From assembly GCF_050320075.1 (NCBI RefSeq), contig NZ_CP190018.1: a stretch of DNA of 64,000 nucleotides, one strand, 5' to 3'. Shown in pieces: positions 12,243-55,415 of this stretch. The DNA is from Escherichia coli (GTDB lineage Bacteria; Pseudomonadota; Gammaproteobacteria; Enterobacterales; Enterobacteriaceae). Made by a program: the position numbers and the translations under genes. The notes under the pieces were generated by a model that did no database searches, was not told the origin of the DNA, and saw only the letters and a program-made list of their open reading frames with translations. Position 1 is the first letter of the stretch; every line of letters starts with the position of its first letter.

Positions 12243-13540
<1,298 letters not shown>

Positions 13541-29113: not shown

Positions 29114-29359
29114 CTACGTAATCAACCTGATTTGCCGAATCCCGACCATCGGCGATGATAGCCCCCGTAATGCGTGGTCCTTATTTCCGATAAGTTTACT
29201 TGAGTCTTTAGCTTCCCATTTCAGCCCACTCTCCCCTGTGTGGGCTTTTTTCATTGCTCTGCCCCGTCCTGAATAGCCAAACAATGGCAATGTTTCACTT
29301 TGCAGGGATGATAATAAGGGGATCTGATTCAGAAGAGTTATGAAAAGTTGGACCGCCAT
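29114..29359 (-). CDS. yahM: small uncharacterised protein
   Basis: ORF 29114..29389; start placed at MAVQLFITLLNQ (81 aa); weak call because an intrinsic-terminator-like hairpin lies inside it on the opposite strand. Confidence 0.5.
   Translation of the reverse strand: MAVQLFITLLNQIPLLSSLQSETLPLFGYSGRGRAMKKAHTGESGLKWEAKDSSKLIGNKDHALRGLSSPMVGIRQIRLIT
29223..29251 (+). terminator. intrinsic-terminator-like hairpin (agcccac...gtgggct + T6), probably the yahN terminator
   Basis: GC stem followed by tttttt on the + strand, 126 bp downstream of the yahN stop. Confidence 0.55.
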
Positions 29360-29771
29360 CGAGGCCTCGAACCCCGTACCATACAACAATCCTGGTTGTC
29401 GTCTGCTCTTCCTGATGAGCTAATGGCGGTTTTTGATATGAGCCTTACAGCATATTTTCTGTCAGGCTTGAGTGCGATGCGTAAGATACAGAAAAGACCC
29501 CACACAAACATGATGGAATTATGATTTTTTTCATATGAATGTCAACCCACACATTCACAAAACATCTGCATGAGATCATTTTTTATACACCGTATAGCTG
29601 CGAAACCACTGCTGATGCTTTTTTAAGCGAAGCGTCGCCGATCACAACAAAATATCGGCGAAAAAGGCGGTGGAATGCCATTTGGCATACGGATATACAG
29701 ATGAAATGATTACCTGCTTTGCGATTCACTCTCTGGTGGAATAACAACTCGCAGGTGGAACCCTTTCTGAA

Positions 29772-48624: not shown

Positions 48625-49450
48625 ACCTTTTATCTTTTATCGCTGTTCAGTATGAGTGATTACCTGTGGATTCCTGAGCACACATAAGGGGTAACCATAA
48701 ACATCAGCGATGCCATACGCATAACATCCCACATCACTATCAAAAAGATTATCTTTACCTCTGATGCTCGCTCAAAAACAGTTACGCTAAATACCTTAAA
48801 AAGGTAATCACAAGTCAAACTCAGGAGATAATCACGCAAGAATGCAATATTAAAATTCAGATACTCATTTTTGGTAATAAAGAAGTAGTTGGACTATTTC
48901 AATATTTATAATTTCCCACTACGTATTGACGCCCATTCATGAGTAAAGGCGCATTATATGAATTTAACAATCCAGATCAACTGAAAATACCTCAACCTCA
49001 TAAACACATAGCGTCAACATTCAATGACATAATGAGTAAAGATGTTGGTTATGCATACACGTCATTACTCTATGCCTATCCCTTAACAACCTGCTTTTTA
49101 AGGCTGAATCCATTCAGCAATAGATAGCCAACATTATAACAATGACAATAAAAACAATATTTAAAACAATCAATAAAATATCAGACACAGACAATTAAAC
49201 CTTAAACAACAAACAGTTACATTGATTTTAGTTGATTTGCGCTACGCGTTTCCCATGAATAAAGCGTCATTTCAAATTAGCACCAATATTTACATTAAAT
49301 AAGACTAAGCTTATTGAACATTCACAACAGTCCAAGCGTAGGTTTTGGGCTTCAATAGTTCTTTTCTTTTTTATTATCTGTTGCCTGGCAATCATCAATC
49401 GATACTAAGGGCTTAACTGTACACAGATATAACGTATCAAGAGGTAAGAG

Positions 49451-49495: not shown

Positions 49496-51529
49496 TCACG
49501 CGTCCGGGAACATCACGCTATGGCCCGGCGCTTCACGATGGAGATGGATAAAGTTAAGGTGCCGCTCGTACTGATCGAGAATATCGGTGATCACCTGCTC
49601 TTTGCTGTAGTCCATCAGGTCGTTGCCCTGGCTGCCTTCTAACAGGAAAGTTTCCAGCCGGTAGTAGGTCGATTTACCGCTACGTGCGCGGTAGGTAAAG
49701 CCCGGCACCGAATATTGCTGCGGCCAAATCTGATAGACAAAGTTTTGCTCTTCGCCCATATGCACCAACAAATCCAGATGCCCCAACTGTTGTCCCTCTT
49801 CCGGCGGCAGGCTTTTTAGCTCCACGTACGCGCCGCGCAACCGCAGCTCCTGCGCCACTTCTTCCATTGCCGGGTAACAGACCGTCTCCATCATCTGTTT
49901 AGTGTAACGCGTGCCCGGATAATTCATCAGGCGCGAGAGACGTTTTTTCCAGCTCAGGCGATCCTGAAGCCCCAGCGGTCGCGGCGCGGTATCACGGTTG
50001 GCACTTTCACGGCGGTAATCTTCTACCTTCAGAGATTTATACAACCCCGCCATCACGAAGAAAATCACAAAGCTGAACGGCAGCCCCATGATTACCGTGG
50101 TGTTTTGCAGCGCGGATATCCCGTTGGTCATCAGCATGCCGAGCGTCAGCAGGCCAATCGCCACCGACCAGAAGACGCGCAGCCAGCCGGGGGCGTCGCT
50201 GTTGATATCTTTAAGCTGCGAGGTGAAATTCCCCAGCACCAGCGCCCCGGAGTCCGCCGAGGTCACATAAAACAGCAGGCCAGTAATGGTGGCGACGGAG
50301 GCGCTAAAGGTAAACGCCGGATACTGCGCCAGCAGGCTGTAGAAGCCGCGCTCCGGATGGACCATCGCTTCCTCGGCAAATGCCGCGCCGCCGTGGATGA
50401 TTTCATACAGCGCGCTATTGCCGAACACCGAGAGCCATAACAGCGTGAAGGTAAACGGAATAATCAACGTGCCCAGCACGAACTGGCGAATGGTACGCCC
50501 ACGCGAGATACGCGCCAGGAACAGGCCGACAAACGGCGACCATGCCACCCACCATGCCCAGAAGAAGAGCGTCCAGTTATTCATCCACTCAACCGGACGG
50601 TCGAAGGCAAAACTGTTGAGCGTCATGCCCATAAAGCGATTCACATAGTCGCCAACGTTCAGCACCAGCGCATTAAGCAGGAACGAGGTGTCGCCCATAA
50701 ACAGCACGAACAGGATCAACCCCAGCGCCAGCGCAACGTTGAGTTCCGATAACACGCGAATGCCCTTATCGACACCGGAGGTGACAGAGATCGTGGCGAT
50801 GATCACCGACAAGGCGATCAGTGCCGCTTTCGCCGCCATTGAATCGGGAATATCAAACAGTACGCTCAAGCCATAGTTAAGCTGTACCACACCGATACCG
50901 AGCGTAGTGGCAATACCGAAGATGGTGCCGATTACCGCTGCAATATCCACTGAATGACCAATCGGCCCGTTAATCCGTTTACCGAAGATCGGGTACAGCG
51001 CCGAGCGGATGGTGAGCGGCAAATTATAACGATAGCTAAAGTATCCGAGCGCCATGCCCATCAGCGCATACATCGACCAGCCGGTTAAGCCGTAGTGAAA
51101 CAGCGTCCAGACCATCGCCTGACGCGCAGCCTCAATCGTCTGACCCGCGCCTTCCGGCGGCTGCATATACTGCGTTACCGGTTCGGCTACGGAGAAGAAC
51201 ATCAGGTCGATACCGATCCCGGCAGCAAACAGCATCGCCGCCCAACTCAGCAGACTGAATTCCGGTTTGGATTGTTCTGGCCCGAGCTTCACCGAACCAA
51301 AACGCGAACAAGCGATACAGACCACAAAGACAATATAGAGCGTTGCCGCCAGCAGATAGTACCAACCGAAGGTTTTAGAGACCCAGTCCAGCGTGCGTCC
51401 AATCCACAGGGCCGAGAAGTCGCGAAACAGGATCGTTGTCAGGGAAAACAACAAAATCAGTCCGGCGGAAGTGTAAAACACCACCGGATTGATTTTGTCC
51501 TTTTCCCTGCTGTGTGAAAGGTCTGTCAT
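49496..51529 (-). CDS. betT: choline transporter (BCCT family)
   Basis: 677-aa polytopic ORF, divergent from betIBA. Confidence 0.95.
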   Translation of the reverse strand: MTDLSHSREKDKINPVVFYTSAGLILLFSLTTILFRDFSALWIGRTLDWVSKTFGWYYLLAATLYIVFVVCIACSRFGSVKLGPEQSKPEFSLLSWAAMLFAAGIGIDLMFFSVAEPVTQYMQPPEGAGQTIEAARQAMVWTLFHYGLTGWSMYALMGMALGYFSYRYNLPLTIRSALYPIFGKRINGPIGHSVDIAAVIGTIFGIATTLGIGVVQLNYGLSVLFDIPDSMAAKAALIALSVIIATISVTSGVDKGIRVLSELNVALALGLILFVLFMGDTSFLLNALVLNVGDYVNRFMGMTLNSFAFDRPVEWMNNWTLFFWAWWVAWSPFVGLFLARISRGRTIRQFVLGTLIIPFTFTLLWLSVFGNSALYEIIHGGAAFAEEAMVHPERGFYSLLAQYPAFTFSASVATITGLLFYVTSADSGALVLGNFTSQLKDINSDAPGWLRVFWSVAIGLLTLGMLMTNGISALQNTTVIMGLPFSFVIFFVMAGLYKSLKVEDYRRESANRDTAPRPLGLQDRLSWKKRLSRLMNYPGTRYTKQMMETVCYPAMEEVAQELRLRGAYVELKSLPPEEGQQLGHLDLLVHMGEEQNFVYQIWPQQYSVPGFTYRARSGKSTYYRLETFLLEGSQGNDLMDYSKEQVITDILDQYERHLNFIHLHREAPGHSVMFPDA

Positions 51530-51594
51530 CCAGTATCCCCACTGTTATTGTTACCATTTAAAATCAAATTCGTAACAATTAAGACACATTTTAT

Positions 51595-51612
51595 ATTGAA
51601 CGTCCAATCAAT
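51595..51612. promoter_or_regulatory. palindrome in the betT-betI divergent promoter region, candidate BetI operator
   Basis: ATTGAacgtccaATCAAT inverted repeat centred between the two divergent start codons. Confidence 0.5.
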
Positions 51613-51657
51613 AACCGCTTTAATAGATAAACAACGCTGATGAATGGAGTGGCGAAA

Positions 51658-52245
51658 ATGCCCAAATTGGGGATGCAGTCGATCCGGCGCAGACAACTGA
51701 TCGACGCCACGCTGGAAGCAATAAATGAAGTGGGCATGCACGATGCAACGATCGCGCAGATCGCCCGCCGTGCAGGCGTTTCTACGGGGATCATCAGCCA
51801 CTATTTCAGGGACAAAAATGGTCTGCTGGAAGCAACCATGCGCGATATCACCAGTCAGCTGCGTGACGCGGTTTTGAATCGATTACATGCACTTCCGCAG
51901 GGCAGTGCAGAGCAGCGATTATAGGCGATTGTTGACGGGAATTTCGATGAAACGCAGGTCAGTAATGCTGCGATGAAAGCCTGGTTGGCGTTTTGGGCCA
52001 GCAGTATGCATCAGCCAATGCTTTACCGTTTGCAGCAGGTGAGCAGCCGCCGCTTGTTGTCGAATCTGGTGAGCGAATTTCACCGCGAGTTACCGCGCCA
52101 ACAGGCACAGGAAGCGGGCTACGGCCTTGCCGCGCTGATTGACGGATTATGGCTGCGCGCGGCACTGAGCGGCAAACCGCTGGATAAACCTCTCGCACAC
52201 TCGCTGACCCGTCACTTTATTACTCAGCATTTACCCACCGATTAA
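51658..52245 (+). pseudogene. betI: TetR-family repressor of the bet regulon, interrupted by an in-frame TAG
   Basis: Frame [41 protein letters not shown]...SAEQRL, then TAG at 51922..51924, then the same frame continues [12 protein letters not shown]... to the normal stop at 52245. Confidence 0.85.
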
Positions 52246-52258
52246 CCGAGGAGACGTG

Positions 52259-53731
52259 ATGTCCCGAATGGCAGAACAGCAGCTTTATATACATGGTGGT
52301 TATACCTCCGCCACCAGCGGTCGCACCTTCGAGACCATTAACCCGGCCAACGGTAACGTGCTGGCGACCGTGCAGGCCGCCGGGCGTGAGGATGTCGATC
52401 GCGCCGTGAAGAGTGCCCAACAGGGGCAAAAAATCTGGGCGGCGATGACCGCTATGGAACGCTCGCGTATTCTGCGTCGGGCCGTTGATATTCTGCGTGA
52501 ACGCAATAACGAACTCGCAAAACTGGAAACCCTCGACACCGGAAAAGCGTATTCGGAAACCTCAACCGTCGATATCGTTACCGGCGCGGACGTGCTCGAG
52601 TACTACGCCGGGCTGATCCCGTCGCTGGAAGGCAGCCAGATCCCATTGCGTGAGACGTCATTTGTCTATACCCGCCGCGAACCGCTGGGCGTAGTGGCAG
52701 GGATTGGCGCATGGAACTACCCGATCCAGATTGCCCTGTGGAAATCCGCCCCGGCGCTGGCGGCAGGCAATGCAATGATCTTCAAACCGAGCGAAGTCAC
52801 CCCGCTTACCGCGTTAAAGCTGGCTGAAATTTACAGCGAAGCGGGCCTGCCGGACGGTGTATTTAACGTGTTGCCGGGCGTGGGCGCGGAGACCGGGCAA
52901 TATCTGACCGATCATCCGGGCATTGCCAAAGTGTCATTTACCGGCGGTGTCGCCAGCGGCAAAAAAGTGATGGCTAACTCGGCAGCTTCCTCCCTGAAAG
53001 AAGTGACCATGGAACTGGGCGGTAAATCGCCGCTGATCGTTTTCGACGATGCAGATCTCGATCTCGCCGCTGATATCGCCATGATGGCGAACTTCTTCAG
53101 CTCCGGTCAGGTGTGTACCAACGGCACCCGCGTCTTCGTTCCGGCGAAATGCAAAGCCGCATTTGAACAAAAGATTCTGGCGCGCGTTGAGCGCATTCGC
53201 GCGGGCGACGTTTTCGATCCGCAAACTAACTTTGGCCCGCTGGTCAGCTTCCCGCATCGCGATAACGTGCTGCGTTACATCGCCAAAGGCAAAGAGGAAG
53301 GCGCGCGCGTACTGTGCGGCGGCGATGTACTGAAAGGCGATGGCTTCGATAACGGCGCATGGGTTGCACCGACCGTGTTCACCGATTGCCGCGACGAAAT
53401 GACCATCGTGCGCGAAGAGATCTTCGGTCCGGTGATGTCGCTTCTCACTTATGAATCTGAGGACGAAGTGATTCGCCGCGCCAATGATACCGACTACGGC
53501 CTGGCGGCGGGCATCGTGACGGCGGACCTGAACCGCGCGCATCGCGTCATTCATCAGCTGGAAGCGGGTATTTGCTGGATCAACACCTGGGGCGAATCCC
53601 CTGCTGAGATGCCCGTTGGCGGCTACAAACACTCCGGCATTGGTCGCGAGAACGGCGTGATGACGCTCCAGAGTTACACCCAGGTGAAGTCCATCCAGGT
53701 TGAGATGGCTAAATTCCAGTCCATATTCTAA
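52259..53731 (+). CDS. betB: betaine aldehyde dehydrogenase
   Basis: ORF 52256..53731; start placed at [15 protein letters not shown] (490 aa). Confidence 0.95.
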
Positions 53732-53744
53732 CCAGGAGGTTTAT

Positions 53745-55415
53745 TTGCAATTTGACTACATCATTATTGGTGCCGGCTCAGCCGGCAACGTTCTCGCTAC
53801 CCGTCTGACTGAAGATCCGAACACAACCGTGCTGCTGCTTGAAGCAGGCGGCCCGGACTATCGCTTTGACTTCCGCACCCAGATGCCCGCCGCGCTGGCA
53901 TTCCCGCTACAGGGTAAACGCTATAACTGGGCCTATGAGACGGAACCGGAACCGTTTATGAACAACCGTCGCATGGAGTGCGGACGCGGTAAGGGGCTTG
54001 GCGGGTCATCACTGATCAACGGCATGTGTTACATCCGTGGTAACGCGCTGGATCTCGATAACTGGGCGCAAGAACCCGGTCTGGAGAACTGGAGTTATCT
54101 CGACTGCCTGCCCTACTACCGCAAGGCCGAGACTCGCGATGTAGGCGAGAACGACTACCACGGTGGCGATGGCCCGGTGAGCGTCACTACCTCCAAACCC
54201 GGCGTCAATCCGCTGTTTGAAGCGATGATTGAAGCGGGCGTGCAGGCAGGCTACCCGCGCACGGACGATCTCAACGGCTATCAGCAGGAAGGTTTTGGCC
54301 CGATGGATCGCACCGTCACGCCGCATGGCCGTCGCGCCAGCACCGCGCGTGGCTATCTCGATCAGGCCAAATCGCGCCCTAACCTGACCATTCGTACTCA
54401 CGCCATGACCGATCACATCATTTTTGACGGCAAACGCGCGGTGGGCGTCGAGTGGCTGGAAGGCGACAGCACCATTCCAACCCGCGCGACAGCGAATAAA
54501 GAGGTGCTGTTATGTGCAGGTGCGATCGCCTCTCCGCAGATCCTGCAACGTTCCGGCGTGGGTAGCGCTGAACTGCTGGCGGAGTTTGATATTCCGCTGG
54601 TGCATGATTTACCCGGCGTCGGCGAAAATCTTCAGGATCACCTGGAGATGTACCTGCAATATGAGTGCAAAGAACCGGTTTCCCTCTACCCTGCCCTGCA
54701 GTGGTGGAATCAGCCGAAAATCGGTGCGGAGTGGCTGTTTGGCGGCACCGGCGTTGGTGCCAGCAACCACTTTGAAGCAGGCGGATTTATTCGCAGCCGT
54801 GAGGAATTTGCGTGGCCGAATATTCAGTACCATTTCCTGCCAGTGGCGATTAACTATAACGGCTCGAACGCAGTGAAAGAGCACGGCTTCCAGTGCCACG
54901 TCGGATCGATGCGCTCGCCAAGCCGTGGGCATGTGCGGATTAAATCCCGCGACCCGCACCAGCATCCAGCGATTCTGTTTAACTACATGTCGCACGAGCA
55001 GGACTGGCAGGAGTTCCGCGACGCAATTCGCATCACCCGCGAGATCATGCATCAACCGGCGCTGGATCAGTATCGTGGCCGCGAAATCAGCCCCGGTGTC
55101 GAATGCCAGACGGATGAGCAGCTCGATGAGTTCGTGCGTAACCACGCCGAAACCGCCTTCCACCCGTGCGGTACCTGCAAAATGGGTTATGACGAGATGG
55201 CAGTGGTTGACGGCGAAGGCCGCGTACACGGGCTGGAAGGCCTGCGCGTGGTGGATGCGTCAATTATGCCGCAGATTATCACCGGCAATTTGAACGCCAC
55301 GACTATTATGATTGGCGAGAAAATGGCGGATATGATTCGCGGGAAGGATGCGTTGCCGAGGAGCACGGCGGGATATTATGTGGCAAATGGGAGGCCGGTG
55401 AGAGCGAAAAAATGA
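53745..55415 (+). CDS. betA: choline dehydrogenase (GMC oxidoreductase), apparent TTG start
   Basis: FAD motif [18 protein letters not shown]; the codon aligned to the remembered K-12 N-terminus (MQFDY) is TTG at 53745, 5 nt after AGGAGG; ORF overlaps the betB 3' end. Confidence 0.9.

Follow-up and report, generated by a model that had tools for sequence, protein, structure and literature searches.

Does the amber codon that interrupts betI in this Escherichia coli DNA represent a real, inherited allele of the repressor gene, and what would such an allele mean for choline control of the neighboring bet genes? The window, by which we mean the whole stretch of 64,000 nucleotides that was analyzed, contains betI together with its divergent neighbor betT and the downstream genes betB and betA. 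We consider it very probable that a C-to-T change at position 51922 is a genuine inherited CAG-to-TAG allele, from which a null BetI and loss of choline-responsive repression are expected, with polarity on betBA as a possible further effect.

The amber codon and the ancestral state of betI

The betI frame lies on the plus strand (51658-52245) and comprises 195 codons plus a stop, from the ATG at 51658 assigned by PGAP, which is the start used for codon numbering throughout, to the TAA at 52243-52245. Instead of an uninterrupted frame of approximately 195 codons, the window has TAG at codon 89 (51922-51924) in the local sequence CAG CGA TTA TAG GCG ATT GTT, and translation through this stop continues in an open frame to the normal TAA, as the earlier note had described. 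In the list of open reading frames, a 94-aa ORF ends at this TAG, and a separate 90-aa ORF on the same strand (51973-52245, from Met106), which appears in the gene-caller lists, covers the remaining frame and encodes the C-terminal domain. By PGAP and Pfam, the locus is a betI pseudogene with an internal stop. The pseudogene status of the allele is already known, as the RefSeq/PGAP annotation flags the internal stop, while no paper on the betI Q89 amber allele, or on betI truncated naturally in E. coli, turned up in a literature search. The gene is inactivated by an ordinary nonsense substitution, which is no new kind of feature, and by itself this routine nonsense pseudogene of a well-characterized repressor matters little.

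Of the 5,181 E. coli records that matched a betI query of 621 bases, just two were identical to it. Strain 118UI has an intact betI (WP_001376735.1), which within the gene differs from the window at 51922 alone, with C in place of T. Intact betI is also present in CE2050, ECamp083, 746, and MS14384, all of which are closer to the window than 118UI and differ from it at four to five sites over 24 kb, 51922 being among them. Because all five intact relatives carry C at 51922, their sole betI difference from the window, the ancestral codon was CAG (Gln) and the event was one C-to-T transition. This bears out the proposal in the earlier note that a single nonsense substitution had replaced a glutamine codon, and K-12-like BetI fragments accordingly read ...EQRLQAIVGG... 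across this position.

Compared with E. coli K-12, the window has the same betI gene, the same divergent betT / betI-betB-betA order, and the same intergenic region including the TATTGA-N8-TCAATA palindrome, but codon 89 is TAG here and CAG there. Residues 1-88 of the window's BetI are presumably identical to those of the K-12 protein, and we take the downstream part to differ from it at seven residues (G93D, S103N, R142H, E148Q, T178P, R179L, and N181H). All seven of these lineage-specific differences are also found in the intact betI of relatives from clonal complex 38 (CC38). CE2050 and MS14384 belong to ST963, CC38, phylogroup D (PMC9429958; PMC10024524), which places the window's lineage in the same group.

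Inheritance and recurrence of the allele

The Q89 amber is inherited within a sublineage of phylogroup D, CC38-related E. coli. Two complete RefSeq genomes, YZLc1-3 (chicken faeces, China) and Ec-U3 (human urine, Burkina Faso), carry the window's haplotype together with the TAG, and in both of them PGAP annotates a pseudogene, 'transcriptional regulator BetI, internal stop', at coordinates matching betI of the window. The window differs from YZLc1-3 by three SNPs in 50 kb and is identical to neither genome, and thus represents a third isolate of the sublineage. Gene calls on NCBI, ENA, and Logan data yielded the exact 88-aa product on 145 public contigs, and 117 contigs gave the C-terminal fragment of 90 aa that is specific to the lineage; the 88-aa product fell into 191 index blocks, and the window's arrangement was seen on 21 of the 24 longest contigs. 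The betI amber is a marker of a CC38-related sublineage whose members come from poultry and from human urine on different continents.

These observations bear on the suspicion that the true codon is CAG and that TAG arose in error during sequencing or assembly. A point in favor of an error is that lacY of YZLc1-3 is also frameshifted in a T-run, the type of call that long-read homopolymer error can give. The betI change, however, is a substitution and not a homopolymer indel, the TAG recurs in independently made assemblies from China, Burkina Faso, and New Zealand and in NCBI, ENA, and Logan contigs, and the lacY frameshift is common to all three sublineage members and hence inherited too. With the Q89 amber present across so many independent assemblies, we rejected the error reading, which is almost certainly wrong and is effectively refuted for the betI allele as such.

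As to lacY itself (12288-13540), the window has a 1-bp deletion in the T-run near 12431, where it reads ATTATTTTGC; the intact LacY protein, as we take its sequence to be, implies ATTATTTTTGC at this site. The gene is annotated as 'frameshifted' in YZLc1-3, the deletion is shared by the window, YZLc1-3, and Ec-U3, and in ST963 relatives without it the match is one base longer. Since all three carriers have the deletion and the ST963 relatives lack it, the betI-amber sublineage appears to have inherited a lactose-permease defect as well.

The same amber codon is also found on a second haplotype. The complete genome of 19AR0254 (midstream urine, New Zealand) has the identical TAG, annotated as 'internal stop', and a Logan contig (L010) carries it on the same type of haplotype. 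Between this haplotype and that of the window, betI has 21 differing sites, with 97.2% identity over the 5.5 kb around it. Over 1,601 bases, the nearest neighbors of the 19AR0254 haplotype differ from it at the TAG base alone, C versus T. We considered and rejected recombination as an explanation for the TAG on the second haplotype: the two haplotypes differ on either side of the codon, at 51711 and at 51935, so that a transferred tract would need to be shorter than 224 bp, and each haplotype differs from its own neighbors at this one base only. Two independent transitions are simpler than a shared origin, which gives the betI Q89 amber no fewer than two separate origins. Such recurrence is only slightly remarkable, because a single transition can turn 20 betI codons into a stop, by 23 routes in all, and the population sampled is very large. 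A Dcm hotspot was rejected as the cause by direct reading of the sequence, as the context TTACAGGCG is not CCWGG.

Other disruptions of betI circulate in E. coli and Shigella. A stop at Q126 was found on 42 contigs of Shigella dysenteriae, a stop at E98 on 14 contigs, and there are two frameshifts following residues 86-88, of which one was seen on 50 contigs; among the matches listed, the Q89 amber, with 145, has the most contigs of all truncated betI forms. The expected result of these alleles is alike, a BetI without its C-terminal domain, although their mutations and positions differ from those of the Q89 amber. Inactivation of betI appears to be a repeated event in E. coli and Shigella, with one and the same base change responsible on two occasions.

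Several independent disruptions, including both occurrences of the Q89 amber, cluster at 51908-51924 (codons 84-89). A tandem duplication of 5 bp in GCAGAGCAGCGA would account for the frameshift after residue 86, whose 102-aa product is present on 50 contigs; a further frameshift, after residue 87, gives a 97-aa product. Short GCAG repeats in codons 84-89 may favor slippage.

Two of the three complete-genome carriers of the TAG (Ec-U3 and 19AR0254) came from urine, and the repeated inactivation of betI raises the hypothesis that loss of the repressor could be advantageous in high-osmolarity host niches. That BetI loss is recurrently selected in extraintestinal E. coli, with the Q89 change perhaps also adding a minus-strand promoter toward betT, is in our estimation an unlikely account. 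The promoter itself was suggested by a promoter scan, in which the C-to-T change at 51922 turns a minus-strand TGTAAT into a perfect -10 element, TATAAT. The resulting promoter-like site, TCGAAA-18 nt-TATAAT (51918-51947, minus strand), is a consensus match that reads toward betT. A stronger version, in which the mutation was selected as a gain plus a loss because the new -10 element drives an extra transcript toward betT, could draw on the fact that this site, with 10 of 12 consensus matches, exists only through the T at 51922, and on the recurrence of the identical base change in a second lineage. Against it, the site is known as a consensus match only, and its -35 element is weakened to three of six matches in the second TAG lineage, where position 51942 is C. 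Recurrence is moreover unsurprising given the 23 routes to a stop and the very large sampling, and the unrelated truncating alleles that also circulate indicate simple loss of function. Selection for such a gain plus loss is therefore very unlikely.

Expected consequences for BetI and bet expression

With Gln89 restored, the translated frame matches two Pfam domains, PF00440 (TetR_N, residues 14-59, E = 2e-14) and PF13977 (TetR_C_6, residues 85-192, E = 1.5e-28), and the best solved TetR-family homologue, 3e7q, aligns across residues 10-171. The TetR_C_6 domain is encoded in the betI frame downstream of the stop and hence lies outside the product, and the 88-aa sequence (51658-51924, plus strand) is matched by PF00440 only. 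The earlier note had likewise expected the helix-turn-helix (HTH) to be kept and the C-terminal half to be lost. In the TetR family, the C-terminal domain forms the ligand pocket and the dimer interface, and the repressors bind palindromic operators as dimers. As the entire C-terminal domain is lost, the fragment would be expected to have no repressor activity, and we strongly infer from this domain loss that repressor function is gone and that the 88-aa product would behave as a null repressor. Restart of translation to give a C-terminal fragment was rejected, as none of the in-frame start codons past the TAG has a Shine-Dalgarno motif ahead of it; for this reason the 90-aa ORF at 51973-52245 is probably not translated.

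The betT-betI intergenic region (51530-51657) holds the divergent bet promoters, is unchanged relative to relatives with intact betI, and contains the palindrome TATTGA-N8-TCAATA at 51594-51613. This palindrome is likely to be the core of the predicted BetI operator, because BetI is known to bind the betI-betT spacer, its single specific target (PMC5934670). The structural genes in the window are all intact. On the minus strand, the BetI target betT (49496-51529) encodes a choline transporter of 677 aa (WP_000131044.1) that is the same in carriers and non-carriers. On the plus strand, betB (52259-53731; betaine-aldehyde dehydrogenase, WP_000089106.1), which has its own GAGGAG ribosome-binding site, and betA (53745-55415; choline dehydrogenase, WP_001159140.1) are both shared with intact-betI relatives. 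Since the three genes have the same accessions as in non-carriers, the pathway shows no decay.

In 1996, Lamark and co-workers reportedly observed that both bet promoters escape control by choline in a betI mutant and stay osmotically inducible and, without oxygen, repressed by ArcA. By analogy with that mutant, the following course would be expected for the Q89 amber. With codon 89 changed from CAG (Gln) to TAG by the C-to-T transition at 51922, translation would end after residue 88, keeping the TetR-type HTH and dropping the BetI-type C-terminal domain, and a fragment without the ligand and dimer domain would be inactive as a repressor. At the divergent promoters of betT and betIBA, the repression that responds to choline would then be lost, while osmotic stress and, under anaerobiosis, ArcA would still take effect. 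In view of this residual osmotic and ArcA control, the state that the earlier note predicted as derepressed is better read as choline-independent. For betT, clear derepression would be predicted; for betB and betA, the promoter gain might be partly offset by Rho-dependent polarity over 334 untranslated bases. The expression phenotype of Q89 amber carriers that we infer, in which choline no longer controls betT and betIBA, makes for a simple, testable prediction, namely bet expression that does not need choline.

The effect on betBA admits a stronger form, in which polarity dominates over derepression and Rho termination in distal betI lowers betB and betA expression, impairing conversion of choline to glycine betaine. 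The 334 bases from the premature stop to the betB start (51925-52258, plus strand), defined by position and base composition, would be untranslated in the absence of any restart codon bearing a Shine-Dalgarno motif, and they include a C-rich, G-poor stretch of 78 nt (52170-52247; C 37%, G 14%) that is a candidate Rho entry region. These bases could partly cancel the promoter gain of betB and betA. Dominance of polarity, however, is argued from base composition alone, a scan found no intrinsic terminator-like site, and betB has its own strong ribosome-binding site. Furthermore, betB and betA remain intact, with the accessions of non-carriers, across a widely spread clone, which speaks against decay of the pathway. 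We regard dominant polarity as improbable and prefer loss of choline-responsive repression with a possible partial offset on betBA.

Leakiness of the stop is the other way in which the expected phenotype could fail: a suppressor tRNA or natural readthrough might yield enough full-length BetI for useful choline-responsive repression. The earlier note had attached this caveat to its prediction and proposed a search for supE-type alleles; our check took in glnV/X, glnU/W, tyrT-type, and serU genes. In YZLc1-3, the closest complete genome, the metT-leuW-glnUW-metU-glnVX operon was read directly and has wild-type anticodons, CUG in glnV/glnX and UUG in glnU/glnW, by which supE suppression was rejected. 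The supE query (CUA anticodon) gave 155 exact matches, and among the matches listed 60 of 60 were K-12 laboratory derivatives; C600, DH5alpha, DH1, and others, which matched at 100%, served as the positive control. Suppression by supF or supD was rejected as well, with exact matches in 0 of 5,426 genomes for the former and in one K-12-like strain only of the genome collection for the latter; these queries were validated by the wild-type genes, which match with exactly one mismatch. YZLc1-3 carries neither of these two alleles. For the genes covered, the search went against the suppressor caveat. What still favors a leaky stop is that near-cognate reading of UAG by tRNA-Gln, established knowledge on amber readthrough, would give back the wild-type residue, and that betI is autoregulated, so that derepression lifts its own mRNA level. 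Natural readthrough in E. coli is usually approximately 1% or below. Low-level readthrough inserting Gln, together with autoregulation, may make the phenotype leaky rather than null, but enough BetI for useful repression by choline response is distinctly unlikely, and a null repressor remains the preferred reading.

Loss of a local repressor by truncation follows a principle familiar from acrR, ramR, and smvR in clinical Enterobacteriaceae, in which a truncated local repressor leaves the neighboring operon constitutive. SmvR loss, for example, is reported to come with up-regulation of smvA (PMC6362122). In the acrR, ramR, and smvR cases it is efflux pumps that are derepressed, and drugs or biocides are the selective agents, whereas the target of BetI is an osmoprotectant pathway, for which no selective agent is known.

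Other loci in the window and in carriers

Some further features were noted in the window and in other carriers of the allele. ARAGORN calls a tRNA-Ser (GGA anticodon) at 29349-29429 on the minus strand; the YZLc1-3 annotation has only the yahM CDS (29114-29359) at this site and no tRNA, and the call may be spurious, or a feature may have escaped annotation. In Ec-U3, an IS1A element (L008 9078-9836; window approximately 49061-49076) separates pdeL from the 3' end of betT; neither the window nor YZLc1-3 has this insertion. An ENA metagenome scaffold with the same betI allele (L011) has 18 SNPs in approximately 150 bp of betB (window 53374-53521), which suggests a short recombination patch or a chimeric assembly, and in another scaffold from that study (L012), betB is broken into two ORFs. 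At approximately 35416-37849 of the window, IS150, an IS3-family element with a programmed-frameshift transposase, splits the gene for a substrate-binding protein of a sugar / autoinducer-2 type ABC transporter, and the YZLc1-3 annotation gives this gene as two partial pseudogene fragments.
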